Source of the DNA: a virus
Lineage: Duplodnaviria > Caudoviricetes
IMG/VR virus record: IMGVR_UViG_3300021185_000405
Span: 1 to 56,082 of that record
DNA: 56,082 nt
Strand: one strand, 5' to 3'
This document shows positions 1 through 22,482 of the stretch, piece by piece (the stretch's first letter is position 1; each line of letters opens with the position of its first letter). Below the pieces are notes generated by a model. That model had not been told where the DNA came from. It made no database searches and saw only the letters and a list, made by a program, of their open reading frames with translations. The position numbers were made by a program, and so were the translations under genes.

Positions 1-2179
1 AAAGACCTACTGCAGTGTTTATAGCACCTACTCCAGTTGTGCCATTATTAACTGTAGTTTCTAAGTTAGTTATTTTAGTAGAACTTGAACCAGACAAACC
101 TACAGCTGTAGATAGACTAGATATAGCTGTTGCATTAGAAGTTAAACGTGTGTCATCAACAGCTACCCAGGCACTACCGTTGTATCTATATTGTTTGTTA
201 TTATCATTAGTGTCAAACCACAAATCACCTGCGTTTACCCCTGTAGGTTGATCGTCTTGTGAATGTATGGCTATGCCAGAAGTATCGTTTACGGCCACCC
301 AGTTACTGCTACCAACCGCAGTTGCACGATACAACTTGTTGTTATCGTCTGTATCTATCCAAAGGTCGCCAATAGCTGTAGCAGCTGGTGCTGAAGTTCC
401 TACAAAGGTTGTTACTTTACCATCTGCTTTTGCATCTGCATCTGCAGCATCTTGTAGTGCAGCTGCAATTCCTGAATCTTGTGTTGCAACCCAAGAGCCC
501 GAACGTCGAGTATAAACTTTGTTACCATCGTTAGTGTCAAACCAGATGTCACCTTCACTTGCAGAACCTGGAGCATCATTTTGGTAAAAACTGTCAATCT
601 TACCATCTGCTGTTGATTGCGCTGTAGCTGCGTTTGCTATTGCTGTCCCGATAGAACCATCTTGGATAGTCACCCATGCGCTTCCGTTCCAGCGGTAAAG
701 TTTATTGCCATCATTGCTGTCAACCCAAAGATCATTTACAGCTACCGCAGTTGGAGCATCATCTTGTACAAAAGTTTGGTTCTTCGCGTCTACTTTAGAA
801 GTTAGAGCAGTAACAGAGGAGGTACTTGCTTTAGTTGCTATGTCATCATCATTAGATGTTATCTGTGTTTGTAATCCACTAATAGCATTAGCTACTCCAT
901 TCGTACCACCAAAACCATTTAACGCACTGTTTAAAGATGTAATAGAACTAGTTTGGTTAGTTATAGTACCTTCAGCAGATGTAAGTCTAGTGTTCAAACC
1001 GCTGACTGCAGTAGCTACAGTAGAGGTTCCAGAGTAACCAGACAAAGTACTTTCTAGTTCTGTAATATCTCCTGTGTGAGCAGTTATTGTTCCTTCTGCA
1101 GATGTTACCCTAGTTGTTAAAGCACCTATAGCAGAAGCATTTCCGCTTATATTATTATTAGCATTAGTTATAGAAGAATTTAAAGATGTAATATTTATTG
1201 AAGTTGATATATCTCCATTGTCACTAACACCCGCAACTAGTAATAAATCAGATGCGTTTTGAGATATGGCATTACCATTAGCGGTAATCTGCGTTTGTAG
1301 AGTTGTATCAGAGGAACTAGTAGACCCGGCCGTACTTGCTGCCCAGGTACTACCGGTGTACACGAATATCTCATTACCGTTGTCGGTGTCCATCCATATA
1401 TCACCAGCTTGCAAGCTACTGCTGTCATCTCTACTTGTAGGTGCAGAGGTTGACCTTATAACCCTAGGTGTACTTGTTGATAAACTATTAACTGAAGCTT
1501 GGGCGGCGGCAGCTGCAGAGTTTACAGTAGCTATAGTAGTCTGTAAGTTAGCAGTAGTAGAACCTAAAGTAATAGGTATAGTTGTGTTTAATGTAGAGAA
1601 ACCAGGTAGAGCACTTAACTCTTCTGAAAGAGCTTGCATTACTGCCCCAACATCAACTGCAGTAGTAGCAGCTACGCCTTCAGTAGCATTGTAAGGGCTT
1701 ACTACGTCTGCAATACTTACAAACCTAACCCAATAATAATAAGTAGCTCCATAACCTACTTCATCAGCATATACAAAAGCATTAGTAGTAGATATAAGAG
1801 TAGCGCCGCCAAGAGCATTTGCTTGCGATCTCCATATTTCTGTGTATGCGTGGTTCCCGTAACTAGCTTTGTCCCAAGTTAAAAGTATGCCAGTAAAAGC
1901 ACCACTTGCTTCTAGGTTAGTAGGTGCGGGTGGGGTGGTAAGATCTCCAGGCCCACCGTCATCTGGAGGAGATATGCCATTTTCTACACCAACAGCCTTG
2001 TTTCTTACCTTTACGATACCAGAATCAGATAATTCTCTAAGAGTTACAGCTCTATCTAAAGGATCACCACGTCTGCCTAATCTAACTTCTAATGCTTCTT
2101 TAATAGCATCGAGTGCTATCTTTAGTTCTCTGTCAGTTTTCGGAGGTATATTTTTTAAGCCTGGAAGTTTTGTAGTCAT
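1..2179 (-). CDS. Tail fibre / host-specificity protein (runs off the left edge, 3' partial)
   Basis: Not in the ORF track. ATG at 2179 overlaps the upstream stop (TAATG). Translates MTTKLPGLKNIPPKTDRELKIALDAIKEALEVRLGRRGDPLDRAVTLREL..., and the frame was open wherever checked. Contains repeated GD(L/I)WxD(T/S)xDxNKxY..W modules and Ser/Thr/Ala-rich coiled-coil-like stretches. Confidence 0.8.
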   Translation of the reverse strand, partial: MTTKLPGLKNIPPKTDRELKIALDAIKEALEVRLGRRGDPLDRAVTLRELSDSGIVKVRNKAVGVENGISPPDDGGPGDLTTPPAPTNLEASGAFTGILLTWDKASYGNHAYTEIWRSQANALGGATLISTTNAFVYADEVGYGATYYYWVRFVSIADVVSPYNATEGVAATTAVDVGAVMQALSEELSALPGFSTLNTTIPITLGSTTANLQTTIATVNSAAAAAQASVNSLSTSTPRVIRSTSAPTSRDDSSSLQAGDIWMDTDNGNEIFVYTGSTWAASTAGSTSSSDTTLQTQITANGNAISQNASDLLLVAGVSDNGDISTSINITSLNSSITNANNNISGNASAIGALTTRVTSAEGTITAHTGDITELESTLSGYSGTSTVATAVSGLNTRLTSAEGTITNQTSSITSLNSALNGFGGTNGVANAISGLQTQITSNDDDIATKASTSSVTALTSKVDAKNQTFVQDDAPTAVAVNDLWVDSNDGNKLYRWNGSAWVTIQDGSIGTAIANAATAQSTADGKIDSFYQNDAPGSASEGDIWFDTNDGNKVYTRRSGSWVATQDSGIAAALQDAADADAKADGKVTTFVGTSAPAATAIGDLWIDTDDNNKLYRATAVGSSNWVAVNDTSGIAIHSQDDQPTGVNAGDLWFDTNDNNKQYRYNGSAWVAVDDTRLTSNATAISSLSTAVGLSGSSSTKITNLETTVNNGTTGVGAINTAVGL

Positions 2180-4161
2180 TACACTTCCTTAAGCTCTACG
2201 ATTGACTCTCCTAAACAAACCTCGTTTACAATTTTCGCAGTCTCTATCTCAAAAGCAAAAGTTTTATGTACGCTTGCGGGCAACCGCACTGTAGGTTCGG
2301 GTATAGCTGTAGCACTAAAACTAGGAGTGGTACCCGTAATACTAAAAATACTACCGCTTGTAGATATAGTAGCGTTGTATATTACCGAGCCATCTCCGTA
2401 CACTTTTAATGTTACCGGGTATGCTTCTGCATCTACTTTTGCAAACCCCATACTAGTAGGCCTTGCCATTGGAAAGTCTTTACTCTTCCAATTGTACGTA
2501 AGGTTAGTAGAACTACCTTGAAACTTTTTAATTTTATTTCCTATTATTAAATACAGCTCGTTATCGTCAGGGTCAGTAAAACCGCCGCGTATTAACGCAC
2601 CTGCATCTAGATCTACAAGTGCGTTTGTTCCCTGTCGGGGGTCAAATATAAATCCACCAAAACCGGAGCCAGTGTTGTAAAACCCTACATACCTTCCTTG
2701 CCAGTAAAAACCTGTGATAGTAGAAGGGTAGTAGTTAGCTTGCCACTGTTCTGCAGTTATTATCGGCTCTGTTATATTTTGAGCTTGGGCACCAGAAACT
2801 GCAATAAGACCGTCTGGCCCTGCATATATCACTGTTTCGCCCATATCCACCATAGATCTTTTACTTAAACACGCTTCTGCTGTTTCTATTTTTATAGCAA
2901 TCATGGCTGAAGGGTCGCTACCCGTTACTAAGTAAGGAGTGCTTTCTGTTCCTACAATAAGGCCGTTAGAGGTGGCTTTTATACCTACTATTTTTTCTTC
3001 TATACCTAGCCTATAAGCAGCAGGCCAAGCGTGTGGTTGGTAAGCTTCACTAAAACATATTCTATTGCCCGTAAAACCAGCAAAAGTACCGTTACCTAAA
3101 GCTAGCAACCCTTTCATAGGCCCGTCTGGGTATAGAGCGCTGTCATCTGGTGGCGCAATCCAAGTGCTAGAAGGTATAACTTCAGCTAGTTCAGTGTTTT
3201 TTGATACATCTGTATAGGTCGTAGCAGACAATGCCAGCTCTGCTACAAATTGAAATTGCGTAGAATTAGAACCAGTGTTAGATCTGTATATTCTTTTCTT
3301 TGATAAGTTGGTATTACTAATACTTGTAGAAGTCTCTAGCGCAGATAGAGCTACGGTCATATTATCATCCGTGGTTATAACTGTAGAGGCGGGTGAAGGA
3401 GGTCCTTCTTCTCCGTACGCAGATACAAAAGTGTATACGTAGGAAGTTTCGTAATCTAACTCTGCGTCTGAATTACCACCAAGTGCTACACCGTTTGCTA
3501 CAGAGGCACTGTTACCCGTACCCGTTGCAGCAGCAGATAATTCTACTGTTAAAGTAGAAACACTAGGCACTGTCTTTATTTTATAATTACCGTTTATATC
3601 TGCAGCAGCTACTCCCTGCGTTGTAGAAAAACCTGTAAGTGTTATGTATTCACCTACAGAAGCACTATGTGCAGTGGCTGTGCCACTTGTAGAAGTAGTT
3701 ATTGTTATAGTAGAACTTTCATTTACAAATGCGATAACTCCATCAAACTGTGTTTGTCCTACTGGGGCTACCGTAGGAGCGGCTGTAGGAGCGGGAATAC
3801 CTAATCTGTAAGCAGAATTAGGATATACAGAACCGCCAATTATGTCAGAAGACCTACCCATTTTAGGAAAAGTTTGACCCGACCAATATAGCGTGTCATT
3901 GGTATCTCCTGGTATAGCACTACGCACGACATTTACATCTTCATCGAATTGTAGCCAACGTTCTGGATCATCTGTGTACTTAAAAACAGATTGCCTAGAA
4001 GAATTAGAAAGAGTAAGAGTATCAGAGTTATCTCTTATAGGTACTAAACGCCCACTTTCAAGATTTACGTCAGTAGCTGTTGTAGCTAACTCATCTTTTA
4101 ATAGACGGGGAGAAGCTTTAGGGGCAAGCCCTCCGAATGTGTTAAGTTTAATATAGGCCAT
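2179..4161 (-). CDS. Virion structural protein, probable tail nozzle/stabilisation protein
   Basis: 660 aa. N-terminus MAYIKLNTFGGLAPKASPRLL, YVYTFVSAYGEEGPPS and CFSEAYQPHAWP motifs resemble beta-propeller podophage tail proteins. Confidence 0.65.
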   Translation of the reverse strand: MAYIKLNTFGGLAPKASPRLLKDELATTATDVNLESGRLVPIRDNSDTLTLSNSSRQSVFKYTDDPERWLQFDEDVNVVRSAIPGDTNDTLYWSGQTFPKMGRSSDIIGGSVYPNSAYRLGIPAPTAAPTVAPVGQTQFDGVIAFVNESSTITITTSTSGTATAHSASVGEYITLTGFSTTQGVAAADINGNYKIKTVPSVSTLTVELSAAATGTGNSASVANGVALGGNSDAELDYETSYVYTFVSAYGEEGPPSPASTVITTDDNMTVALSALETSTSISNTNLSKKRIYRSNTGSNSTQFQFVAELALSATTYTDVSKNTELAEVIPSSTWIAPPDDSALYPDGPMKGLLALGNGTFAGFTGNRICFSEAYQPHAWPAAYRLGIEEKIVGIKATSNGLIVGTESTPYLVTGSDPSAMIAIKIETAEACLSKRSMVDMGETVIYAGPDGLIAVSGAQAQNITEPIITAEQWQANYYPSTITGFYWQGRYVGFYNTGSGFGGFIFDPRQGTNALVDLDAGALIRGGFTDPDDNELYLIIGNKIKKFQGSSTNLTYNWKSKDFPMARPTSMGFAKVDAEAYPVTLKVYGDGSVIYNATISTSGSIFSITGTTPSFSATAIPEPTVRLPASVHKTFAFEIETAKIVNEVCLGESIVELKEV

Positions 4162-4168
4162 TTTTTCA

Positions 4169-4621
4169 TTATACAGTATTCAGAACTGATTCTTGCAGTT
4201 CTCGACTCCTTCTTCCTACTTGGTTAAACCATCTGCTGTCTTCCATTTCAGCTGCCATTTGTTTCCAATCGTGTGCTCTACATGCTTTTAGCATGTTACG
4301 GAACTTAGAAAGTCTAGTCCCTCCTAAATTAAAGCACATATTAACTATAACATGTTGTATATTTTCGGGTAAATTATAAAAATCTTCTTCTGTACCAAAC
4401 ACGTGTATAGCCTCATCTACGTGCTTAGCAAAATCATCTTCATAATACAGATCAACAACTTCTTGTGATACTTTAGTACCCACTTCCCAATCGTATTCAG
4501 GATCATTGGGTTGACATAGGTGCCCAACACCTAGTGTTTTGTAGCCTAAACTATCTTTATATATCTCTAAGACTTCACCCTCGTGTCTTTTAATCTCTTC
4601 TTTTAGTTGTTCTACATTCAT
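4169..4621 (-). CDS. Lysozyme/endolysin (GH24, T4-lysozyme-like)
   Basis: HEG-x5-YKDSLGYKTLGVGH gives the catalytic E/D/T arrangement; also NMCFNLG and SRWFNQVGRR. Confidence 0.92.
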   Translation of the reverse strand: MNVEQLKEEIKRHEGEVLEIYKDSLGYKTLGVGHLCQPNDPEYDWEVGTKVSQEVVDLYYEDDFAKHVDEAIHVFGTEEDFYNLPENIQHVIVNMCFNLGGTRLSKFRNMLKACRAHDWKQMAAEMEDSRWFNQVGRRSRELQESVLNTV

Positions 4622-5079: not shown

Positions 5080-5814
5080 CTAGATAAACTCAATTGAATG
5101 AGTTCCGTTTCCAACAAAACTAATGGCGCTGCTGTAAACGCCTGCAAATCCATGGGAAGCAGTCCATATTCTAGAAGTACCACTAACACTAGAAGTCCAT
5201 CCAATGAGCGATGTCCCGTCAGACTGGTTATAATCTCCAGTAAAACCACCCCCACTTGGTAGAAGATTTCTTACTCTTATAGTACTCCAAGAATTTGCTG
5301 CCGGTGCGCTAGCTTGATACCCAACACCTCTTACTACAACAAACAATTGACCTCCTAAACTAAGGGCCTCTTGACCAATACCTTCAAGATAATAGGAAAA
5401 AGTAGAAGGGCTACCAAAGTTACCAACTCCTCGAAGGTCGGGTGTTCCTGACTGTGCGCCCAATTTCATATAACCCTGAGATGTAGAAGAGCCATCGTTC
5501 CTTACAACAGATGCCCCATGCGCAGTAAAAGCACCTGTTAGGGTTCTAGTAGCTGCGCCTTTAGTAGATCCGCTAGTATAACTACTTGAACCGCCTACAA
5601 CTCCTCCTGTATCATGTAAATCATCAAATCGTAAAGTTTGATTACCCCCATTAATACCAAGAGTATTGTTAGAGCCATTTGCCTGGGGAGGCATATGCCT
5701 GTAGTCAGTAAAAGATATATTAGAATTAGATTTAGCAGACACACCTTGGTTAGGTGTACGATAGACACTAGCTAATTCTGCCATATCTACATTTGTATCT
5801 TTAAACCAAGACAT
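5080..5814 (-). CDS. Gly/Ser-rich protein, probably virion/fibre-associated
   Basis: 244 aa, Gly/Ser/Thr-rich; TAATG-coupled to the upstream gene. Confidence 0.5.
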   Translation of the reverse strand: MSWFKDTNVDMAELASVYRTPNQGVSAKSNSNISFTDYRHMPPQANGSNNTLGINGGNQTLRFDDLHDTGGVVGGSSSYTSGSTKGAATRTLTGAFTAHGASVVRNDGSSTSQGYMKLGAQSGTPDLRGVGNFGSPSTFSYYLEGIGQEALSLGGQLFVVVRGVGYQASAPAANSWSTIRVRNLLPSGGGFTGDYNQSDGTSLIGWTSSVSGTSRIWTASHGFAGVYSSAISFVGNGTHSIEFI

Positions 5815-6446
5815 TAATAATATTCCATTTTATATTTTTCAAAAGTACAACTGTAATTATTTTTTACGTTCTCCCAAGTTTCACCTTCGGGAACGTTATA
5901 ACTTTGAGTAACTTCTCCTAAGTTTACCATGCTCCCCCAATTTTTTACATTTGACTCTTCTATATTACGAAAGTAGTTTATCCAAGACGTTAAGCTATCG
6001 TGTATAGGAGAACCTATATCTACGTAGGTGTACGCTACTGTAGCACCTAAAGACTTTTCTACTTCTCCTAAAACATTATGATACTCAGACACAAATAAAA
6101 AGTTTCTCGTACCATCTGCATCTGGCCTCATTAGGAAGTTACACAAATGGTATTCTCCGCCGTCATTAATAAACCCGATAAATAAACCTACAAGGTGATT
6201 GTTAACATAAGTACCTATAAGTACCCCGCCTGGTTGTAATAAATTTCCTAGGCAAACGTTGTACCAAAAATCTGTTTTTATATCTTCTGAAGCAGAAGCT
6301 ATTTCTTCTGGAGTGTAGTCTACTCCAGGATAAGCATAAGTACCTCTATTTATATACCCACTAGACTGTATATATAAATCTTTTAAAACACCTTCGTAGT
6401 AAAGAGTTGTTATGTCTTCTTCTGTAAGTGATGCGGCTTTGTACAT
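5814..6446 (-). CDS. Hypothetical protein
   Basis: Likely start MYKAASL at 6446, just after the stop of the PLOD-like gene; Tyr-rich and acidic. Confidence 0.6.
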   Translation of the reverse strand: MYKAASLTEEDITTLYYEGVLKDLYIQSSGYINRGTYAYPGVDYTPEEIASASEDIKTDFWYNVCLGNLLQPGGVLIGTYVNNHLVGLFIGFINDGGEYHLCNFLMRPDADGTRNFLFVSEYHNVLGEVEKSLGATVAYTYVDIGSPIHDSLTSWINYFRNIEESNVKNWGSMVNLGEVTQSYNVPEGETWENVKNNYSCTFEKYKMEYY

Positions 6447-6448
6447 TC

Positions 6449-8290
6449 CTACAGTATATCGCCTTTGTACCTTTGTGACCATATAGTAAGACTGTACTTA
6501 GTGCCTTCAATAAGTTCTACACATTCGTGTGGGTGTGTTACTTGTCCTGGGAATAAAAGCAGTTTACCTACAGGTATATCAGCATTGCTTATGCCTTGTC
6601 TAGGAAAAAATAACTCGCCACCTTTATAGTTTTTATTTAATTTTACTGAGCCAGTTACGTGCGAAGAGTCATGGTGTAATGCTAATTTAGTTTGTGAATT
6701 TGTAGAATACTTCAACATAAACGCATCTCTTACACCCTCTACAACCATAGGATTCCAATAAGGTTCTATTATAGGTTTGACATGTTTTTGCCAATGTTCT
6801 TCTAATTCTTGGTATAGGTTAAGTTCTTTTAGCCTTATCTCTTGTGCAGGGTAAGTATCGTTAGGCAAGCTTTTCCACTCTGCATTTTGCTCTGCTAGTT
6901 CTATAAGTCTTTGGCATTGATGTTCTGACATAAAATCTATCAGTATCATGTCTTTATCTATGACTTCATAGTCATGGGTAGGGGTATGAAACAAGTTGTA
7001 CTGCGGGTACATTTCTTTATAGATACGTTCAAAGTTATCTTTTGCAGAGTCATCTCCATTGCCGTGGTATATACAAGGACAACACGTTGTCTCTTGGTTA
7101 TGTAATTGTTTACCTAGCATAGTTATATTAGGCTCGTGACACTGAAATATATAAGCTTCTACGTCTAAGCCTATGTCATAAATGCCTTCTAAATATGCTT
7201 GTTGATAAAACAACTGATCGTCTTGGCGATCTGTTATAGAACCGTGGGTTAGTATTTTTTTTATTTCTCCTACTTCACCAATAAACGTACCAGAGTTAAG
7301 ATATCTATACCTAGTATGCACGGAAGGAAACTGATTACCTAAACTAGGATCGGGCCAACACACTTCTTCTGCAGAAAAAAGTACCTTATGTCCCATATCT
7401 AAATATCTTTCTTTGATTGTTTCTAATGAATCAGAATAAAAAACATCGTACGCATCTGTAAAGAGTAAAATATCCGTGTCCGGCAAATGTTGTATATGTT
7501 GTTTTAGTATATTTACTTTTTGACCACCACCTGGCCCTGTCATATCTGAGCCTCTCCAGTCAACACCTGCACCCCAGTTATCTATTTTTACACTGTGCTT
7601 ATCTGCAGAATCATATAGTTTTTTCATTTTGGTCACGTCTGTACCAATTGTTATTGCATGTATAGTCATATCTCTCCTATCATTACGTATGTCAGAAGGT
7701 AGTATATCAGTGCGGGCTTGGTTACAAGCATCTTCTTGTAAAGCCAACGCCATAAGACTGCCTTCCCTAATTTGTTCTGGTATGTACTCATCTACGGGTA
7801 TTATACCTTCTTGCATTATATTAGTACCCAAAAGCTTTTTTGCTCCTTTTGGTGCTATAACGTAAGCTGTAGTGTTGTAAGGGTACCAAGGTCTTTCTAA
7901 CCTATCCCCCATTTTTATAGTATTTTGAGGTTCGTTTTCATTACGTTGTAGGTATAACAAATCCCAATAGTCTATTGTATGGTCATAAAACTCTTCATCC
8001 CACTTATCTATATTTATAATTGCATCATCCTCTATTACATATATAGGCTCATCTAACTCTACGCACTTTTGCCACATGTTTCTATGTGATAAAAAACACG
8101 CTACTTCTGTAGGTACAATACCTCTTTTTTGAAAAGGGTCTATCCACCCAGGCCTTGTTTTGTACATAGATAAATCTTTATAGCCGTCTACTGCTTCTAC
8201 AAACGTGTAGTTTTTTAACGTTGGGTTTTTCTCTATAAAATGTTGTTTACGTTCAGGCCTACTTTTTAGATTAATTACAAACTTCTTCAT
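6449..8290 (-). CDS. Fused GT25 (COLGALT-like) glycosyltransferase + PLOD/LH3-like glycosyltransferase + lysyl-hydroxylase-like 2OG-Fe(II) dioxygenase
   Basis: aa 1-~200: VINLKSRPER, EAVDG, ACFLSH, EDDA, WDLLYL, PVDEYIP (GT25). aa ~208-425: GGGQKV, FTDAYDV, FSAEEVCWP, YLNSGTFIG, DDQLFY, HGNG (PLOD GT domain). aa ~440-613: HHDSS, GGELFF, FPGQVTHPHE (PLOD hydroxylase domain). Confidence 0.88.
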   Translation of the reverse strand: MKKFVINLKSRPERKQHFIEKNPTLKNYTFVEAVDGYKDLSMYKTRPGWIDPFQKRGIVPTEVACFLSHRNMWQKCVELDEPIYVIEDDAIINIDKWDEEFYDHTIDYWDLLYLQRNENEPQNTIKMGDRLERPWYPYNTTAYVIAPKGAKKLLGTNIMQEGIIPVDEYIPEQIREGSLMALALQEDACNQARTDILPSDIRNDRRDMTIHAITIGTDVTKMKKLYDSADKHSVKIDNWGAGVDWRGSDMTGPGGGQKVNILKQHIQHLPDTDILLFTDAYDVFYSDSLETIKERYLDMGHKVLFSAEEVCWPDPSLGNQFPSVHTRYRYLNSGTFIGEVGEIKKILTHGSITDRQDDQLFYQQAYLEGIYDIGLDVEAYIFQCHEPNITMLGKQLHNQETTCCPCIYHGNGDDSAKDNFERIYKEMYPQYNLFHTPTHDYEVIDKDMILIDFMSEHQCQRLIELAEQNAEWKSLPNDTYPAQEIRLKELNLYQELEEHWQKHVKPIIEPYWNPMVVEGVRDAFMLKYSTNSQTKLALHHDSSHVTGSVKLNKNYKGGELFFPRQGISNADIPVGKLLLFPGQVTHPHECVELIEGTKYSLTIWSQRYKGDIL

Positions 8291-8766
8291 TAGTTAAATT
8301 CCTTTGCTACTTCTACATCATAGTTCCAGGAGTTTATATTCATAGATACTCTTTCTCCACTTTGAATAGGTGTTACTTTGTGTTCTAGACCAGGACCAAA
8401 CATGACAAGTCTATTTGTCACTGGTGTTATACGCATGTTATTTTTAAATATAAGTTCGCCACCTACTAAATCTTTTACATGGGGGTAAAAAACTATAGAA
8501 CATATAGGAAAATGGCTTTGTCCTGTTTTAAAAAAAGTTTGTTCATCTCTGTCTTGGTGCCAATCTGGCATACCATTCCTATGAAACCAAATGTCATACC
8601 CTACTTGATTATCAAAGTTAAAGTAATTAGCTGCTGTATTTATAAGTCGCCTAGCAACTACGCCGTTATCGTGTTCTTCTTCTTTCTTAAAATAAGTGTG
8701 ATTGTTTTCGTTGTTTATAGTCTCTAAGGTCGTAGGGTAAAAGACTTTATCTACTATTATAATCAT
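8290..8766 (-). CDS. 2OG-Fe(II) oxygenase (prolyl-hydroxylase-like fold)
   Basis: WHQD...GGEL...HKVTP...GERVS supplies the HxD...H triad and the 2OG-binding Arg. Confidence 0.85.
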   Translation of the reverse strand: MIIIVDKVFYPTTLETINNENNHTYFKKEEEHDNGVVARRLINTAANYFNFDNQVGYDIWFHRNGMPDWHQDRDEQTFFKTGQSHFPICSIVFYPHVKDLVGGELIFKNNMRITPVTNRLVMFGPGLEHKVTPIQSGERVSMNINSWNYDVEVAKEFN

Positions 8767-9317
8767 CTAAACTTCGGTCCTTCTATCCAGGCTACTAAAG
8801 ATTTACGCACGCCACTAGTTACAGGCATAACCGTGTGTCGTATTGGAGAAGGAAAACAAAATACTGTACCGCGTTGTGCTAAAGCCTTGGGGTCGGGTTG
8901 TTCATACATAGGGTCTAAAAGAAATTGTCCTCCTTCATATTCTGTAGGGTCGCTAAGCTGTATTGTTACACTAATCTTTCTATCAAAAGAAGTATTACCT
9001 GCCCAAAAAGTATCATGGTGCCAGTCATAGTAGCCTTGGTCTGTACCATTATATATAGTGTATTGGATATCTTCTAAATAAGAAATGTCAAAACCAAAAG
9101 CTTGTCTATTAGCTCTAGTAGCAAACCCATATATGAGTTGATTTATCCACTCTATCTGTCCTGCCCACCTTACTTCAGATCTTCGTACGCTTGTGTTTAC
9201 ATCTCCACCATCGCCTACATTAGCTTTCATAGGCTGTAGCTTTTCACATTCTTCTATTATTTTGTTGCAAGTAGTAGGCTGTATGCCTCTTTCCCACATT
9301 TGCCAAATCGAATTCAT
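8763..9317 (-). CDS. 2OG-Fe(II) oxygenase (P4Hc/PKHD-like)
   Basis: YDWHHD, RKISVTIQLSDP.EYEGG, FPSPIRHTVMPVTSGVRKSLVAW. Confidence 0.9.
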   Translation of the reverse strand: MNSIWQMWERGIQPTTCNKIIEECEKLQPMKANVGDGGDVNTSVRRSEVRWAGQIEWINQLIYGFATRANRQAFGFDISYLEDIQYTIYNGTDQGYYDWHHDTFWAGNTSFDRKISVTIQLSDPTEYEGGQFLLDPMYEQPDPKALAQRGTVFCFPSPIRHTVMPVTSGVRKSLVAWIEGPKFR

Positions 9318-9331
9318 AACACCTCCTGTGT

Positions 9332-13231
<3,900 letters not shown>

Positions 13232-15147: not shown

Positions 15148-18100
15148 TTACCTTCCTAAATTCCTAGTGTCTAGTTGACTGTATACAGGCAAAAAGTCTG
15201 AAGGACGCCAATCTAAAGTTACTCCGTCATAAACTCTTTCTGCCGTAGGCCCTAATGGGGGGATCCAAAAAGGATTACCATACCTGTGGCTTTCTAAAAA
15301 CACAGGCAAAGCTAAAGAAGCAGGTCCTAGCATACCACTTCTGTCTATTATTTCTGTCATGTATTGGCCTGTACTCATATCATCTGATTTAAAATAATTT
15401 ACTCCTGGGTCATTTGGGCTAATACCAGGAAGCACCCAAGCCAAAAATGCTTTAAACATTTCTCTTATTTCTAAACCTAACATTGTTATAGGCAATAACA
15501 TTCCTGCCATCATAAGTATAGGCATAGCCCCTGCACCCGCACCTTGGTTTACAAACCCTTTATGAGATTCTTTTAACGCAGGGAATACAATTGTTTTTCC
15601 ATAAGCATAAAAGAAAGATTTAAGTTGCCATATAAGTGCATACCTAGGGTCATTAGCATATGCAGGTCTTTGCGCTGGGTTGGGTCTAACAATAGATTCG
15701 TCTACAAACTGAGCTAAAGCCTCGTTAACTTTCTCTCTAATAGCTTTATCTGTTTTACCTTTTTCCCAGGCTAAAACTTCATCAGCTGTTATATTTAATT
15801 CTTTTAAATAAGTTTGTGACTGAACATTTCCATTTTGAGCTTTACGTGCGTGGTCTTGTAAAAATCTAGTACCCATGCCCGTAGCAAAAACTCTAGTAAA
15901 CCTAGTATATGCCTCTAGGCCTGTTACTCTGAACCAAGTATCAGTAATATCTTTTGCGGACTGCCCCATAAAATCTTGTTCGCCAGCTAAAACAAAGAAA
16001 CTAGACATAGCATCTACACCTATAACTCCTACTTCCCGTGCTAAATCTGCAGCTTCTTGCGGGTCTTTTATCATGTCTTTTATAACATTAGTAACATCAC
16101 TTATCTTAGCGGTGCCCCTTGCTCTTAGTATAGGCCCTGCTGTATCTTGTAAAGAAGCTATAACAGTCAGCCCTAGTAGGGTAATAACATTTAATGTTAG
16201 TCCAAAGTTATTTGCTGTTCTTAATAACCCATTTTGTATTGGTTTTATTTTTCCAAACATAGAATTTATCATATCTTCAGCTTCTTGCCTCTGGGCTTCA
16301 GATAGTTTGCTAAGTAGTCTTTCTAATTCTACAGTCCCTCCAGATTTATCAAACTCATAACGTAAAGCAACTTTATCTAAATATTTTTTAAGTGCTACTT
16401 CTGGAGCTTCTGCTAATTGCGTATCTATAAGCCTCTGGTTTGGTATAGCTTCAAAATATTGTTTCCTAGCGTACAAAACTCCTACATCTATTTCTTCTTT
16501 TGCCGTAAATTCAATATCGCCATTGTTTTTACTTACTAAATCCGTAATAACTTTTCTAAGCGTGGCATCTTTTGCTTTTGGGTTATATTCTTTTAGTAAA
16601 TTAAATAAAGTTGTTTGTTTGTTTTCATCAGTTGCGATTTCAGCTATAGCAATTACCCTAGGAAAGAAGTTTTTTCTAAAATCTACATCTAAGTTTTTAA
16701 GACCTAAATCTTCATATAATGTTTCTAGATAACGTCTTAACTCTGCCGCTTGTGGGTTGTTTAGGTCTTCCATAGCTATTTCATCATTAGCAGCTAAGTT
16801 TATAGCTGCTTTTTGTTCTTCATTAAAAGTGCTGTAAAACCAACCGTCTTCTACCCCTAATATTTTTGCAACATCATTTAACATTGCATTTGCTCTTCTA
16901 GTTTTTAGAGTAAATATACCTGCTCTACCCGAAGCCCCAACACTCCTAGGGTCTAAGTTAAAGAAATCAGCTATTGCTTCTCCTGGAGTCCCAAACTGTC
17001 TTAGCCTGGTGTCTGTTGTTAGTAATATTGCACGCAGCCATTTAGGCATGTTTTTTGTAGTTAGTAACTTGTTTGCTTGTTCGAGTACTTTTTTAAGCTG
17101 TTTATCTGTATATGTTTGCGGCCCTAATATACTTTCTAATTGTGTTTCTATTTTAGCTTTAACTTCGTAAGGCACTTGTTGGTTTTCTGGGTTTCTTATC
17201 TTGTCTTGTAAATCTCTGGAATACTCATCAAATGTTTCATTTAAATCTAACCTTTGTCTCTGCGGCTTACTTAGTGCACCGTATAATTTTTTCTGTGAAT
17301 TAGCTAAACGTTTAAACCAATTTTGGGCAGGCGCATTCATATCACGATACGTAGTGCCGTCTACGTTTAATCCTAACTTATCTCTTATAGCTAAAGAATA
17401 TTGATCTGCTACAAAGTTGTTAAACCCTGTTTCATTATTTGTATAAGTAGCAGGAGCATTTTTTCCTTTTCGTATTTTTTCGTAGGCCTCTAGTAGCTTC
17501 TTTCTTACTGCTGGTACTTTTAAACTTTTCTCTAGTTCTTGGAAAGTTAAAGAATTACCTAACTCTTTTAAATAAGCAGCATAGTATGCTCCTTCTGAAA
17601 CGTTTTTATTTGTTTTCATCAAGATAACATCAAAATCCCTATACTGCAGAGTCATAGCTAAAGCATTGTCATTGTTTAAAAGTTTTTTTCTTTTACTTTC
17701 AAAATGTTTCATATCTAACTTGCCTTGTATAGCAGCAGATAGCTGTGAATCATTTAGTTCAGCTTCAGCTGAAATAACTTTTAAGTTAGTTTCTAAACCT
17801 AAGTTTCTTGCAGAGGTAGTTAGGCCTTTTATTATTTGCTGCCTAAAAGGTAACGAAGCTCTTTTGCTTTGAGTTTGTGTTGTTTTGTTACCAGTAGTAG
17901 CTGCTGCTCTTTGTGCTAAAACATCTTTAAGTAAAAAGACAGTATTAGCACCTTTAAACTTACGATTATCTTGAAAACCTGGTTTTGAAGTAGCTTCTTT
18001 ATTTTCTTTAAACTGTTGTAAAGGTCCTTCGATAGCTAATACGTATTTACTTGTTTTTGTACTAAATTGAGGCGGATATTTAAACGCTTGTTGTTGTTCA

Positions 18101-21100
18101 AATTGAGAAGTTTGAGTAGATATTTTTTGTCTTAGTTTAGTTTTATCTACCGTACCTCTAGACATCTCGTAGTACTGGTTTCTACCTCTAAACGCTTTTC
18201 CTTGCTGGTCTTGGTAAGACTCAAACAAAGCTGCATCTTGTAAGTCCATTTTAACAGCGCTTGTGTCTACTGGGTTTCCTAAAGCAAGATCATCTGTCTG
18301 AAACAATCCACTGTCTTCTAAAAAGTCTGTCTGTCTTTCTATTTCTATAGCTTGTATATCTGCTATATAAGTTCCTATAGGGACTTCTCTATTTATACTT
18401 CCCCCTACATCTACAAAACGTTCCATTTTTCGCTCTTGGTAGGTAGTTTTTCCAGTATTCTCGTTTACATCTCTTGGGAAGGATGCTTTGTCATCTTTTA
18501 CGAATCTACCTGGTGAGTTTCTTTTATCTTGTGCTTCTATTGCTGCTATGACTGAGCTTATAGGAGCTAAAAACCCAGCGTATACTCTATCTTGGGCAGA
18601 TAACTGTTTTTCTAACTCTTGCGCTTCTTGTTCTAGTGGGTCAGGTCTTTTTGGAAAGGTTCTATACCCTTGTTGGTTAACGGGCGGCTCTCCCTCAAAT
18701 GCTCCTGACCAAGTCATAGAAGAAACGTTTTCTATTTTTTCTTTTAGTTCTTGTAGTTGGTCTAGGGTTAGTTCTTCTATGGTATTTTCTTCTAAGTTTT
18801 GTACAAAAGGAGCGATAAGTTCTTTTCTTTGTAAAGTTTCTAGTGCGCCTTCTTCTCCTCGTTTTTTACTTTTTAAAGACGGAAACTCTAAAAAAGGAGT
18901 ACTCAGTTGGGTAAAACTTTGCTCAGTAAACATATTTTTACTTAGGTCAGTTAAAGCAAATTTCTTTTCTAGTTCTTTTAGCTGAGCTTGTAATTGTTTT
19001 TCATCTTTGCTTAAAATTACTTTAAGCACTTGTGCTCCTGCACGGCTTGTTAATAAGTCATCTAATAAAGCGTTGATTGATATAGTAGGAGCCCTAGGCC
19101 CTATTTTAGGGTCTTTTCTTTCGGATGGTTTTGGTCTTCTTTGTACTTGACTAGTAATATTAACAGGGCCTGTTTCTCCCTTTATTGTGTCTGGATAATA
19201 TTCGAGTACAAATCCTTGTTGTTCTAGTAAAGTTATACCGTCTAATAAAGCTGCTACTCTTTGAGAATATTGAGTAGTAAGTTCCCCACTATCTCTTCTA
19301 CGGGTAATTTTAGTAATCGTAGTTATTCCTTCTAGTAAAACTGCTATATCTATTTTTCCAGTAGGAGTTCCTTCAGATAGTCCCGCATCTAAATCTTTAA
19401 CTTTAAAGTAAATAGGATCCTTATAGTTACCACCTTGTGTCCTTTCTTTAGCCTGAGCTATACGAGTTCGTAGGTCCTCTTTTACGTTTCTTACTTCACT
19501 AGGATTTCTACCTGCCGCTTGTAAAAATTGTTTTTCTTCGGGTTGCATTCTAACTAAAACAAAACCCCTATCTTTATAATTTTTTAATTGCTTTTGATAT
19601 TCTCTGTTTAGTTTTTTGCCTTTAAACTTCCTTGCATCTGGAAGACTAACAATCGGGGACTGAAATACTTCTCCTTTTTTAGAAGCAGTTCTAATACCTG
19701 GTATATCTGACCTATTTACTATTCGTATATATCCTACTCCTTCTGTACGGTTGCTTTCTTCTTTTGATCTAGTAATAAATTGTTCTAATAGTTTTTTAGA
19801 TATGTAAGGTTTTTGTTGCTCATACTCTTGTTGTAAAGTAGGGTGCACATAGCTTTTTGCTCCATTTACAGCATTCCCATTTGCTTTTGGGTCATCTTTA
19901 CTTATTCTAAAAGCTTTTTTAGTAGCGGAATCTACGAAAGGATTTTCTACAGTCCCTGAACCAAACCTTTTTGCAACTATAGGGTTATTAGGGCCTAGTG
20001 GTTCTTTAGTAAAAGAAGAATCTTGCTGGTCTACTACTACGTTAGTTTTGTTAAGTATTTCTGTTACACCTACTCCTGGTATGTTTCTAACATCAACTCC
20101 TTCCTCATCCATTCTCCTCATAGGGCTGGTAATAGAATCATCTTGCTCTATACCAGAACCTAATTCAGAAAGTTCTTGTAACAAAAGACCTAGCTCGTTT
20201 GCTGGAGACTCTTTAACTGCTTTTAAATAATTTCTATCATTTTGGTTTCGTACCCCAGAAGCTTTTTCCGCTCCTACTACTGCACTGTATATTTTAGATA
20301 GTCTAGTTTTTACTTCTGGAGCTGCTTTTTTTAACACTGAGGTTATTTGTTTAGTGCTTTGTGCTCCTTTAGTAGCATTAGATACCATGTTTACAAAAAA
20401 TACTAAGTCTTTGTAGGTGATGGGAAGTTTATAAGTATCCTGTATATAAGAGTCAAAAGCTCTAGATTGTGCTTGGGTTACTTGTCCTTTTTCTATTGCC
20501 CTAGCCTGTTGAGTTACACTCATATCTAAAGTAGACGCTTCTGCTTGTCCAAAATCATCTCCGTCTGTGCCCATTTCTGAATTATCGTCTGTTATTTGGA
20601 AAGCTTCCTTTACACTTTTAAACGGGGTTGTGCCTTTAACTTCTAGGCCTTCTAGTCTGTAGGCCCTATGCTCTGCTAAAGTTTGACTAATTATTTTGTA
20701 ACGTTTCGGATCAGCGTTTCCTAAAATTTCTTGCATTTTAGCTTTTGCTTTTTCAAAATCGTTTTCAAAAGTACTAGAAGTGCCTTGGTAATGTACAAGT
20801 TCGTTAGACTTTGTATCTAGAATACCTACCACCATATCATCGCCTGTTTTTCTAGTTCTGCTGTACCCTAATCCTTTCTCTGCTAAATAAGCATCTTGTA
20901 GCTCTGTGTTAAATGGGTATAGAGTAACTAAGTTTTGAAACTCTTGGGCTTTTGTAGCATCTGTAGTAAAAAAAGCTCCCCTAGCAGTAGCTACTGAAAA
21001 AGCATCAGGTAGTATTTTTTGTAGCTTGTTTAAGTCTGCTGCGCTCTTGCTATCTATGTCAATAAAAGCGCTATCTTTGTTTGAACTAGTATTAGCTACA

Positions 21101-22482
21101 AAATCAAACTGTGACTCTAAAGCAGTGGCTCTTTCTGCCATTACACGCCCCATTTCACTTTCATTATATCTTTGCTTAAACATTTTTAGGCCAGCTTCTT
21201 CTGCTTTGCCCATATTAGTAAGCTCTCGTAGTTTGTTCATAGCACCGGTACCACCACCTAGTGCTCCACCTACTCCTACTCCACCAAAGAAACCTGCAAA
21301 TAAAGCATTTAGCCTATCTACTTTTGCGTTTGCTTGCGTGTAATCTTGGTCTATCTCTAATTTTTGCTGTACGGAAAGTTCTTCTTGGAACCCTTCTGCT
21401 ATAGCTTCAGAAACAGAAGTAACCGCCATAGTCTCTAACATATCCCCAAAAAAAGTAGAGGTAGGACGAATCTCTGGGGTAAAGGCATCGTCCATTCGCG
21501 TTGATACTTTTAACTTACCACCTTTCTTTAACTTTTTAAGTAAAACCCCGGCTGTAGCAGCTTCTGCACCAAGTCCTATAGCACCAAATACTTGTCCTTG
21601 TCCTAATGCAGCTATTGCATCTTCCGGTGATCTCATACCTTCGTCTGCATAGTCGCTAAAAGATATACCAGTACCCATACGTTGTTCTTGATTATAGGCG
21701 CCTGCTAATGCACCTTTAGTAAATCTACTGCTTAGTTTTTGGCTACGTAGCTGTGCATATATGTCATCTAATGCTGCTAAAGAGTCTTTGTCTGTTAGTA
21801 GTTCTGGGAAAGGTAAGTCTCTCCCTTTTTTTTCTGCTAACGCATTTTTATAAGCTTTATTTAAAAGCTCTTCTGCATTTTCCTTTAGGGTGTCTGGTTT
21901 TCTAGCCGCTAGGGTTTTCGGTATTTGTTTGAGGCCTTGTCTACCTGCTGCTTGTAAAGCACCTGCACCTAGTACTAGGCCCGGGGTTGCTGTACCACCA
22001 GTTAAAATAGTACCCCCTGCTACAATACCCCCTACAACTGCAGCTTCTGCAAAACTAGCTGCCAGTGAAGGTACAAATTGACCGGTAGCTGCTGCTACCT
22101 GATTAAAAAAACCTCCTATAGTAGGCTCATCTAAAAACTCTCCGAAGCTTTCCATACCAGCTAGAGGTATAGCAGACTCATCTTCAAACCTATCTCCTTC
22201 TCGCAAGAAGTTTTCTGCGTCTTCGTTGTTACCTCGAATAGTAGCTATAGCAGCTTTGAAGTTTTTATTTTGTGCATTTATGTTAGATACCCCAGACTCT
22301 ACCCCTGCTCTAAGGGCTTGTCCCGGCGTATCTATAGGTTCTGCTCGTGTGGGTCCTGCTTCTGGGGACAGGGTGCCCGCACGTTCTTCTAGTCTTTCGT
22401 CTTCTGAAAACTTATCTGCTTGTTCTGGTGCAAGCTGCCCAGCTCTAAGTCTTTGTATAATATCTTGTTCACTGACTGCCAC
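15148..22482 (-). CDS. Very large internal virion / DNA ejection protein
   Basis: 2444 aa with Gly/Ala-rich hydrophobic segments near both ends; last and largest of a run of internal-protein-like genes in podovirus gene order. Confidence 0.65.
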   Translation of the reverse strand: MAVSEQDIIQRLRAGQLAPEQADKFSEDERLEERAGTLSPEAGPTRAEPIDTPGQALRAGVESGVSNINAQNKNFKAAIATIRGNNEDAENFLREGDRFEDESAIPLAGMESFGEFLDEPTIGGFFNQVAAATGQFVPSLAASFAEAAVVGGIVAGGTILTGGTATPGLVLGAGALQAAGRQGLKQIPKTLAARKPDTLKENAEELLNKAYKNALAEKKGRDLPFPELLTDKDSLAALDDIYAQLRSQKLSSRFTKGALAGAYNQEQRMGTGISFSDYADEGMRSPEDAIAALGQGQVFGAIGLGAEAATAGVLLKKLKKGGKLKVSTRMDDAFTPEIRPTSTFFGDMLETMAVTSVSEAIAEGFQEELSVQQKLEIDQDYTQANAKVDRLNALFAGFFGGVGVGGALGGGTGAMNKLRELTNMGKAEEAGLKMFKQRYNESEMGRVMAERATALESQFDFVANTSSNKDSAFIDIDSKSAADLNKLQKILPDAFSVATARGAFFTTDATKAQEFQNLVTLYPFNTELQDAYLAEKGLGYSRTRKTGDDMVVGILDTKSNELVHYQGTSSTFENDFEKAKAKMQEILGNADPKRYKIISQTLAEHRAYRLEGLEVKGTTPFKSVKEAFQITDDNSEMGTDGDDFGQAEASTLDMSVTQQARAIEKGQVTQAQSRAFDSYIQDTYKLPITYKDLVFFVNMVSNATKGAQSTKQITSVLKKAAPEVKTRLSKIYSAVVGAEKASGVRNQNDRNYLKAVKESPANELGLLLQELSELGSGIEQDDSITSPMRRMDEEGVDVRNIPGVGVTEILNKTNVVVDQQDSSFTKEPLGPNNPIVAKRFGSGTVENPFVDSATKKAFRISKDDPKANGNAVNGAKSYVHPTLQQEYEQQKPYISKKLLEQFITRSKEESNRTEGVGYIRIVNRSDIPGIRTASKKGEVFQSPIVSLPDARKFKGKKLNREYQKQLKNYKDRGFVLVRMQPEEKQFLQAAGRNPSEVRNVKEDLRTRIAQAKERTQGGNYKDPIYFKVKDLDAGLSEGTPTGKIDIAVLLEGITTITKITRRRDSGELTTQYSQRVAALLDGITLLEQQGFVLEYYPDTIKGETGPVNITSQVQRRPKPSERKDPKIGPRAPTISINALLDDLLTSRAGAQVLKVILSKDEKQLQAQLKELEKKFALTDLSKNMFTEQSFTQLSTPFLEFPSLKSKKRGEEGALETLQRKELIAPFVQNLEENTIEELTLDQLQELKEKIENVSSMTWSGAFEGEPPVNQQGYRTFPKRPDPLEQEAQELEKQLSAQDRVYAGFLAPISSVIAAIEAQDKRNSPGRFVKDDKASFPRDVNENTGKTTYQERKMERFVDVGGSINREVPIGTYIADIQAIEIERQTDFLEDSGLFQTDDLALGNPVDTSAVKMDLQDAALFESYQDQQGKAFRGRNQYYEMSRGTVDKTKLRQKISTQTSQFEQQQAFKYPPQFSTKTSKYVLAIEGPLQQFKENKEATSKPGFQDNRKFKGANTVFLLKDVLAQRAAATTGNKTTQTQSKRASLPFRQQIIKGLTTSARNLGLETNLKVISAEAELNDSQLSAAIQGKLDMKHFESKRKKLLNNDNALAMTLQYRDFDVILMKTNKNVSEGAYYAAYLKELGNSLTFQELEKSLKVPAVRKKLLEAYEKIRKGKNAPATYTNNETGFNNFVADQYSLAIRDKLGLNVDGTTYRDMNAPAQNWFKRLANSQKKLYGALSKPQRQRLDLNETFDEYSRDLQDKIRNPENQQVPYEVKAKIETQLESILGPQTYTDKQLKKVLEQANKLLTTKNMPKWLRAILLTTDTRLRQFGTPGEAIADFFNLDPRSVGASGRAGIFTLKTRRANAMLNDVAKILGVEDGWFYSTFNEEQKAAINLAANDEIAMEDLNNPQAAELRRYLETLYEDLGLKNLDVDFRKNFFPRVIAIAEIATDENKQTTLFNLLKEYNPKAKDATLRKVITDLVSKNNGDIEFTAKEEIDVGVLYARKQYFEAIPNQRLIDTQLAEAPEVALKKYLDKVALRYEFDKSGGTVELERLLSKLSEAQRQEAEDMINSMFGKIKPIQNGLLRTANNFGLTLNVITLLGLTVIASLQDTAGPILRARGTAKISDVTNVIKDMIKDPQEAADLAREVGVIGVDAMSSFFVLAGEQDFMGQSAKDITDTWFRVTGLEAYTRFTRVFATGMGTRFLQDHARKAQNGNVQSQTYLKELNITADEVLAWEKGKTDKAIREKVNEALAQFVDESIVRPNPAQRPAYANDPRYALIWQLKSFFYAYGKTIVFPALKESHKGFVNQGAGAGAMPILMMAGMLLPITMLGLEIREMFKAFLAWVLPGISPNDPGVNYFKSDDMSTGQYMTEIIDRSGMLGPASLALPVFLESHRYGNPFWIPPLGPTAERVYDGVTLDWRPSDFLPVYSQLDTRNLGR

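Follow-up and report, generated by a model that had tools for sequence, protein, structure and literature searches.

The window analysed here comes from a marine phage and is the whole of the IMG/VR virus record IMGVR_UViG_3300021185_000405 (56,082 bp, completeness estimate ~93%). It encodes a major head protein, a portal, a large terminase, a family-A-like DNA polymerase, a primase and a helicase, and is therefore a tailed phage genome. A compact minus-strand operon carries, in order, the gene for a collagen-like tail fibre, two small oxygenase genes (oxyA, 184 aa; oxyB, 158 aa), the gene that is the subject of this report, and two further open reading frames (ORFs) of 222 and 244 aa. The fourth gene encodes a 613-residue protein, referred to below as the enzyme, in which a GT25 glycosyltransferase (GT) domain, a PLOD-type GT domain and a lysyl hydroxylase (LH) domain are joined in a single chain, and for which the fibre is the candidate substrate. 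The features concerned are as follows.

6449..8290 (-): three-domain enzyme, GT25 - PLOD-type GT - lysyl hydroxylase, without accessory domain; 613 aa, ATG start
7691..8290 (-): GT25 domain, residues ~1-200, resembling the catalytic C-terminal domain of COLGALT1
7001..7672 (-): PLOD/LH3-type glucosyltransferase domain, residues ~207-430, from the LH3 alignment and Foldseek match 6wfv
6452..6973 (-): lysyl-hydroxylase (2-oxoglutarate (2OG)/Fe) domain, residues ~440-613, from the LH3 and L230 alignments and Foldseek match 6ax6
9332..13231 (-): collagen-like tail fibre, 1299 aa; Pfam Collagen E 4.9e-82, C-terminal Peptidase_S74 chaperone domain, PHROG tail-fibre families

Domains and conserved residues of the enzyme

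An earlier note, made from the sequence alone, had read the protein as three domains in 613 residues, COLGALT1-like at the N-terminus, PLOD-GT-like in the middle and LH-like at the C-terminus. Pfam, PDB searches, an AlphaFold2 model and Foldseek all agree with this division, and every motif quoted in the note was located: WDLLYL at residue 109, AYVI at 142, GAKKLL at 149, PVDEYIP at 165 (PVDEFLP in COLGALT1), GGGQKV at 254, DAYD at 279, FSAEE at 305, CWP at 311, LNSG at 331, DDQLFY at 357, HGNG at 409, HHDSS at 539, HPHE at 586 and GTKY at 596. The domain order GT25-GT-LH follows from Pfam, where Glyco_transf_25 (CAZy GT25) covers residues 2-169 (E 1.8e-23, 83.9 bits, above the curated cut-off of 24), GT_PLOD residues 209-414 (E 4.3e-52, 177 bits, cut-off 27) and 2OG-FeII_Oxy_3 residues 527-605 (E 6.6e-5, 24.2 bits, slightly below the cut-off of 27). 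The top match in a PDB sequence search was human LH3 (E 3.6e-38), aligned in two stretches that comprise the GT (212-418) and LH (447-601) regions. Further matches were mimivirus R699 (E 1.2e-28), human COLGALT1 (~2e-15; enzyme residues 3-173 align to the catalytic part at its C-terminus) and, for the phage LH domain, that of mimivirus L230 (E 3.4e-9). As sequence matches, these four far exceed chance; bacterial GT25 enzymes (7e-5) and generic 2OG oxygenases such as PiuC (0.08) score more weakly. The family phrog_61, named '2OG-Fe(II) oxygenase', matches the enzyme over its full length (E 2.6e-110).

The AlphaFold2 model, built on a 43-sequence alignment, has a mean predicted local distance difference test score (pLDDT) of 91.1 and a predicted template modelling score (pTM) of 0.51, so that the individual domains are confident and their mutual arrangement is not. 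In Foldseek searches of the PDB, the middle domain matched the GT domain of human LH3 (6wfv; TM 0.85, root-mean-square deviation (rmsd) 2.1 Å, 32% identity), with R699 also matching the PLOD-type GT domain (E 2.7e-20), and the C-terminal domain matched the L230 LH domain (6ax6; TM 0.76, rmsd 2.0 Å). For the N-terminal domain, COLGALT1 (~1e-14, 26% identity) came before mimivirus R655 (1e-8) and a bacterial beta-1,4-galactosyltransferase of GT25 (1e-7); prolyl hydroxylases and PolD stood further down the overall list, at ~1e-7. On similarity ranking, the domains thus do not group with lipopolysaccharide (LPS) GT25 proteins or generic 2OG enzymes, and the in-silico checks suggested in the earlier note all turned out in its favour. 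When the LH domain was predicted as a homodimer (residues 436-613, two copies), one control scored as high as the query.

Neither Pfam nor the AlphaFold2 model revealed a COLGALT-type N-terminal NGT/GT1 domain: the enzyme begins at the counterpart of COLGALT1 residue 343 and has no second such GT-A domain. The accessory (AC) domain of PLOD proteins was not found between the GT domain, which ends at ~430, and the LH domain, which begins at ~440, whereas AC-bearing relatives have a spacer of 220-300 residues at this point. The three domains and their short linkers occupy the whole chain and therefore leave no space for an AC domain, as the earlier note had maintained.

Residue equivalences were read off pairwise alignments, and conservation was counted in 43 relatives with 25-85% identity. 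In the GT25 domain, R11 and R14 correspond to COLGALT1 R351 and R354, and Y138 to Y494 (kept in 36/43). E87-D88-D89 corresponds to the EDD motif E435-D436-D437, of which D437 binds Mn2+ (PMC12987934), and is kept in 43, 42 and 43 of the 43 relatives. D167 and E168 in PVDEYIP correspond to D522, the catalytic base of COLGALT1, and E523, which anchors the amino group of 5-hydroxylysine (Hyl; PMC12987934); D167 is kept in 43/43 and E168 in 38/43. Each of the PLOD-GT sites W245, K258, D279-x-Y281-D282, E308, W312, N332, D357-D358 and H409 is kept in at least 39/43. D279/D282, H409, W245, K258, E308 and N332 align with LH3 D112/D115, H253, W75, K89, E141 and N165, whose roles we assume from structural work on LH3. 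W312 and D357/D358 align with LH3 Trp145 and Asp190/Asp191, the gating Trp and poly-Asp residues named in PMC9546862.

In the LH domain, the Fe(II) triad H539-x-D541...H588 aligns with the triads of LH3 and L230 and is present in 43/43 relatives. K598 aligns with an Arg of LH3 and L230 that we take to bind 2OG through its C5 carboxylate; in some oxygenases of this class, Lys is found at this position. The earlier note had pointed to GTKY in place of the expected Arg as a reason why hydroxylase activity needs testing. The Lys does lie at the Arg site; 35 of the relatives have K there and 8 have R, so that the position is a conserved basic one (43/43), which may answer this concern.

The tail fibre and the proposed reaction sequence

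The fibre, a probable substrate next to the gene that the earlier note did not mention, has two collagen-like blocks (residues 133-564 and 612-1172), which together hold 331 G-X-Y triplets. Within these blocks, Lys occurs 60 times in Y and never in X, Pro occurs 98 times in X and never in Y, and Thr occupies Y in 178 triplets. G-X-Lys-Gly is the site at which lysyl hydroxylases act in helical domains (PMC9546862), and COLGALT1 recognises Hyl in the Y position with Gly next to it (PMC12987934). Two ORFs within the fibre gene, 9624..11168 (+; 514 aa) and 9712..10974 (-; 420 aa), were rejected as readings of the G+C-rich triplet repeat (GC 0.56 vs ~0.39 elsewhere) in other frames.

Relatives of the enzyme were found on at least 488 IMG/VR contigs, and linkage was counted in the best 80 of these loci, which come from related and hence non-independent phages (46-85% identity). 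A collagen-like ORF lies upstream on the same strand in 35/35 loci with at least 5 kb of upstream DNA; downstream, none was found in the 41 loci with at least 5 kb of downstream DNA. The linkage persists across myo-, sipho- and podo-like genomes. In Synechococcus phage S-PRM1 the gene order is collagen-like gp158, gp159, two 2OG oxygenases and the enzyme homologue, and in Roseobacter phage CRP-6 a collagen-like tail fibre with GAKGQKGE repeats (gp60) is encoded one gene upstream of the homologue. Among the 8591 triplets of the 49 distinct enzyme-linked fibres, Lys is absent from X and fills Y in 2356, Pro fills X in 1661 and Y in 33, and Thr fills Y in 3393. As a control, viral collagen-like genes were sampled by a Gly-periodic DNA pattern, which gave 76 ORFs from loci that lack the enzyme. 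Of the Lys in these ORFs, 65 are in X and 181 in Y, and 5.9% of their triplets contain Lys vs 27% in the enzyme-linked fibres.

We consider it likely, on the combined evidence of homology and synteny, that the protein is a cytoplasmic phage enzyme that hydroxylates and then glycosylates lysines of the phage's own collagen-like tail fibre. Domain homology, conserved residues, the operon and the synteny with a Lys(Y)-rich collagen are seen directly; which reactions the enzyme carries out, in which order, with what donor sugars and to what benefit, we infer as follows. By homology, the C-terminal Fe(II)/2OG domain would convert Lys in G-X-Lys-Gly into 5-hydroxylysine on the unfolded nascent chain. 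The N-terminal GT25 domain, presumably inverting and Mn2+-dependent like COLGALT1, would then transfer a hexose onto the 5-OH group; this could be galactose, as in animals, or glucose, as for mimivirus L230, whose GT25-like domain uses UDP-Glc (PMC9614988, PMC9546862). The middle PLOD-type GT would add a second sugar, probably glucose, in the manner of LH3 and R699, to give a Hyl-linked disaccharide. With no AC domain, the three-domain chain would allow one polypeptide to handle each lysine in sequence in the host cytoplasm, and a triple-helical fibre that carries sugars would result. The benefit could speculatively lie in helix stability, protease resistance or receptor interaction. There is precedent in mimivirus, where L230 hydroxylates and glucosylates viral collagen Lys (PMC9614988, PMC9546862) and R699 glucosylates Gal-Hyl (PMC9546862).

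Several points weigh against this proposal. The activities, the product and the modification of the fibre are all read from sequence, a model and gene order; the relative placement of the three domains is uncertain; the linkage counts come from non-independent phages; the Pfam score of the LH domain is marginally under its gathering cut-off; and Lys replaces the 2OG-binding Arg. Two residues of the acceptor cleft of COLGALT1 differ in the enzyme: W495 is replaced by N139 (among the 43 relatives, 21 have N and 17 have W) and K470 by N117 (19 have N, 12 K and 5 R), and the W495A mutation abolished the activity of human COLGALT1 (PMC12987934). No confirmed counterpart of the COLGALT1 lid loop (561-580) was found in the enzyme. 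For L230, the reported activities are only the hydroxylase and a single glucosyl transfer (PMC9614988, PMC9546862), so that the full three-step chemistry is not guaranteed.

This last point, together with the replacement of W495 and K470, would fit an L230-like bifunctional enzyme that hydroxylates Lys and adds one sugar (Hex-Hyl), with one GT domain being structural or using another acceptor. Proteins of L230 length nevertheless have a complete PLOD part, and in both GT domains of the enzyme the residues for metal, donor and catalysis are conserved in at least 38/43 relatives, which is unexpected for a decayed or structural domain; by contrast, the AC domain of PLOD is described as non-functional (PMC12003778). 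We therefore regard such a bifunctional enzyme as possible and on balance unlikely. A more extreme version, in which the protein is a non-catalytic fibre-assembly factor that has retained an enzyme-like fold, could draw on the inactive GT-A domains that exist in these families, the AC domain of PLOD and GT1 of COLGALT1 (PMC12003778). It is hard to reconcile with catalytic residues that are invariant or nearly so in all three domains across 43 sequences, down to 25% identity, and we hold it to be extremely improbable.

The acceptor could also be another residue. Thr is the commonest residue in Y, both in this fibre and across the enzyme-linked fibres, and the O-glycosylated GPT repeats of Bacillus BclA are a precedent for glycosylation of Thr in this setting; the GT domains would then modify Y-position Thr and the oxygenase domain would hydroxylate a different residue. 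However, Lys in Y is the sole candidate acceptor common to all 52 fibres; in one of these (L079), Thr is absent from Y, where 25 Lys are found. The counterpart of the Hyl-amine-anchoring Glu of COLGALT1, E168, is largely conserved, and the oxygenase domain is specifically LH-like in fold and in its alignment with L230 and LH3, which leaves Thr glycosylation with little probability. Existing annotation suggests a different role, since JGI labels some members of the family 'GR25 family glycosyltransferase involved in LPS biosynthesis' and PHROGs places phrog_61 in the category 'moron, auxiliary metabolic gene and host takeover'. Under this explanation, the GT25 domain would remodel LPS or envelope sugars of the host and the oxygenase part would be unconnected with the fibre. 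We think this very improbable: COLGALT1 outranks bacterial GT25 enzymes both in sequence (2e-15 vs 7e-5) and in fold (1e-14 vs 1e-7), the gene lies in a tail-fibre operon at all 35 informative loci in unrelated phage types, and the LH and PLOD-GT domains that share a chain with GT25 have no known substrates other than collagen lysines.

Neighbouring genes and source genome

The fibre and oxyA genes are separated by 14 nt, and the next three gene pairs of the operon overlap by 4, 1 and 34 nt. At the junction into the enzyme gene the sequence reads TAATG, with AAGGA in front. The remaining genes of the operon are listed below.

8763..9317 (-): 184-aa 2OG-Fe(II) oxygenase, prolyl-hydroxylase-like (PKHD); Pfam 2OG-FeII_Oxy_3 4.7e-14, PDB match 3dkq, PiuC
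8290..8766 (-): 158-aa second small 2OG-Fe(II) oxygenase; Pfam 1e-7, weak PDB matches, only 3 related loci
5814..6482 (-): 222-aa protein, overlapping the 3' end of the enzyme gene by 34 nt; no Pfam/PHROG match
5080..5814 (-): 244-aa protein, the next operon gene; no family match, homologues in some related loci

The 184-aa oxygenase is probably a hydroxylase of fibre proline and would, if it is a prolyl hydroxylase, act on Pro in the X position, unlike animal collagen prolyl 4-hydroxylase, because the Pro of the fibre lies almost only in X. A homologue is encoded between fibre and enzyme in 26/35 loci with a Pro-containing fibre vs 0/11 with a Pro-free one (Fisher p 1.3e-5, rows not independent). 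An iterated hidden Markov model search for divergent small oxygenases still left 9/35 Pro-containing loci without one, and in some of these nine the intervening genes are methyltransferases or have no match according to Pfam. SAM-dependent or FkbM-type methyltransferase genes were seen between fibre and enzyme at L027 9144-9953, L031 8052-8834 and L047 9417-10004, and one relative of the enzyme (P0130, 875 aa) carries a TylF/Methyltransf_24 domain fused ahead of GT25-GT-LH. These neighbours and this fusion hint at more modification, for example O-methylation of sugars. In S-PRM1, a nucleotide-sugar epimerase gene (L001 13428-14219) lies ~3.6 kb downstream of the enzyme homologue and may thus provide the UDP-sugar for the transfer. 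Homologues of the 222-aa protein occur in many related loci, either directly downstream of the enzyme or 0.8-2 kb upstream; an Atlas look-up gave only a weak acetyltransferase lead.

Elsewhere in the window, the following genes were noted.

15148-22482 (-): 2444-aa virion structural protein, upstream of the fibre module; phrog_30152, E 1e-17
2179-4161: internal-virion-protein homologue
4169-4621: lysozyme-like 150-aa protein

Gene orientation and GC/AT skew flip at ~36000: left of this point the structural genes occupy the minus strand, and right of it the replication genes occupy the plus strand. The portal is ~40% identical to portals of Pseudomonas phages of the KPP25/phiR18 type. A megablast search with 24 kb of the window against phage records returned no match, and the phage as a whole is therefore without a known close cultured relative. 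A search of the window for tRNA genes found none.

Relatives, origin and significance

Among phage records, tblastn identified 11 with full-length homologues (36-46% identity over 93-100% of the query), carried by the Synechococcus myoviruses S-CAM9, S-PRM1 and S-8S53/55/56, a marine single-cell virus and Roseobacter phage CRP-6, and annotated as 'hypothetical protein' or 2OG oxygenase. These entries and phrog_61 belong to the same family as the enzyme over its full length; they differ in that the records hold no collagen-related annotation and make no mention of the fibre-modifying role put forward above. In a protein database, 475 clusters (90% identity) matched at E <= 1e-3, and the best 120 of these are 427-628 aa long (three below 600) and all contain GT25 and GT_PLOD. 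A search of prokaryote genomes with the single enzyme protein gave no relative. With a 14-row alignment, five full-length matches were obtained on contigs of metagenome-assembled genomes from five different taxa. These are probably binned phage contigs and thus point to no one host; where the flanks were sufficient, the fibre-enzyme arrangement was present (3/3). Freshwater Actinomycetota (Ilumatobacteraceae, Acidimicrobiia; L208-L281) encode stand-alone relatives of the LH domain (~217 aa stop-to-stop, 33-42% identity) on contigs that are chromosomal. No collagen-like ORF was found within 8 kb of these genes at any of the 74 loci; the one at L272 has a GluRS-like gene and a gene for a periplasmic binding protein next to it.

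Domain architectures were surveyed in the best 150 representatives after 50% clustering. The short form GT25-GT-LH accounts for 43 of them, GT25-GT-spacer-LH for 31, GT25-GT-spacer for 19, GT25-GT for 14, GT-LH for 11 and GT-spacer-LH for 4. The combinations seen (P0122, P0147, P0204 and others) include two GT25 domains before GT-LH (P0122) and GT-LH alone (417 aa), and environmental proteins also include GT25-GT-spacer without LH (~720 aa) and GT followed by GT25. In the long forms P0170 and P0171, the part after GT25 aligns to LH3 residues 14-713, in two stretches and one stretch, respectively, and both give matches of 1e-52 to 1e-72 with the LH domain of L230, which identifies them as GT25 plus a complete PLOD. 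The earlier note had stressed that animals split these functions into separate proteins. This is correct, but the fusion is not unique to the enzyme, since single chains of L230 length that combine GT25 and PLOD exist.

Among characterised proteins, L230 (895 aa) is the closest: here, too, one viral chain starts with a GT25-like domain and ends with an LH domain that acts on collagen-like proteins of the virus itself (PMC9614988, PMC9546862), and of all PDB entries the LH domain of L230 matches that of the phage best. L230-type fusions place GT25 N-terminal to a PLOD-type GT and LH, the order found with a spacer in 31/150 representatives; the middle domain of L230 itself is read across from the equal-length proteins P0170 and P0171. 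In contrast, the phage protein has 613 residues and lacks the ~250-residue accessory segment of L230-type proteins with a complete PLOD part (~860-1000 aa), has Lys at the Arg position, and belongs to a tailed phage, where it is linked to a tail fibre. R699 has the PLOD-type GT catalytic domain in common with the enzyme, but as a stand-alone GT-AC protein, whereas the phage GT domain lies between GT25 and LH. Human LH3/PLOD3 (GT-AC-LH) resembles the enzyme in its GT domain (32% identity), with counterparts of DxxD, Trp145 and Asp190/Asp191, and in the HxD...H triad of its LH domain. It differs in the AC domain, signal peptide and endoplasmic reticulum context that the phage protein lacks, in the extra N-terminal GT25 of the latter, and in the Arg replaced there by Lys. 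With human COLGALT1/GLT25D1, the enzyme shares an aligned catalytic CGT domain in which R351, R354, EDD 435-437, Y494 and D522/E523 are conserved; it lacks NGT/GT1 and has Asn in place of W495 and K470.

The GT domain was placed in two quick, unrooted trees, in which the 'AC' label stands for spacer length except in P0170 and P0171 and a single animal sequence was included. In a FastTree analysis of 129 rows, all spacer-bearing rows but one fall into a group of 63 (support 99) with no short form inside. A quick IQ-TREE analysis of 100 rows contains a branch (SH-aLRT 92) that separates 53/55 spacer-bearing rows from 45/45 short forms. Lingula anatina PLOD1, the sole named animal sequence sampled, falls inside the spacer-bearing group, and the AC-less phage forms lie outside it. 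On these domain sequences, both trees show AC presence or absence to follow one deep split, without indication of which state is older. The link to the origin of animal collagen modification suggested in the earlier note is thus only partly supported, given that the phage short forms lie outside the clade with the animal PLOD in a quick, unrooted tree. A far-reaching scenario would be that tailed phages of the ocean place animal-type Hyl-linked disaccharides on their fibres by means of one 613-residue chain, and that this AC-less form was ancestral to the AC-bearing giant-virus form (L230-like) and then to the split animal PLOD and COLGALT, so that the machinery would predate animals and have begun as a modification of virion fibres. 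We put this forward tentatively and consider it doubtful as a whole.

Our literature search found no paper in which tail fibres are connected with a phage-encoded lysyl hydroxylase or with a COLGALT-like or PLOD-GT protein of phages. Iyer et al. 2010 (PMC2938197) predicted that other dioxygenase families hydroxylate collagen-like proteins of bacteria, and treated cyanophage dioxygenase arrays as secondary-metabolite genes. The family was already clustered as phrog_61 and fusions of GT25 with PLOD already exist. We regard the enzyme as a compact, phage-borne version, without AC, of the enzymes by which viruses and animals modify collagen lysines, and its candidate substrate is clear.

If the proposed function is correct, hydroxylation and subsequent O-glycosylation of Lys in a collagen triple helix would join the known virion modifications of tailed phages, carried out by a family that is abundant yet labelled as LPS glycosyltransferase or generic oxygenase. 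Glycosylated human collagen still cannot be produced in bacteria, partly since active human collagen glycosyltransferases express poorly there (PMC9546862); a compact enzyme that would naturally work in the bacterial cytoplasm is therefore a candidate tool for this purpose, and it offers a minimal model for the coupling of LH, galactosyltransferase and glucosyltransferase steps. The authors of the COLGALT1 structure have suggested that LH/PLOD and COLGALT possibly derive from a common ancestor (PMC12003778), and the many natural fusions with and without the AC domain make this question testable by rooted phylogeny.

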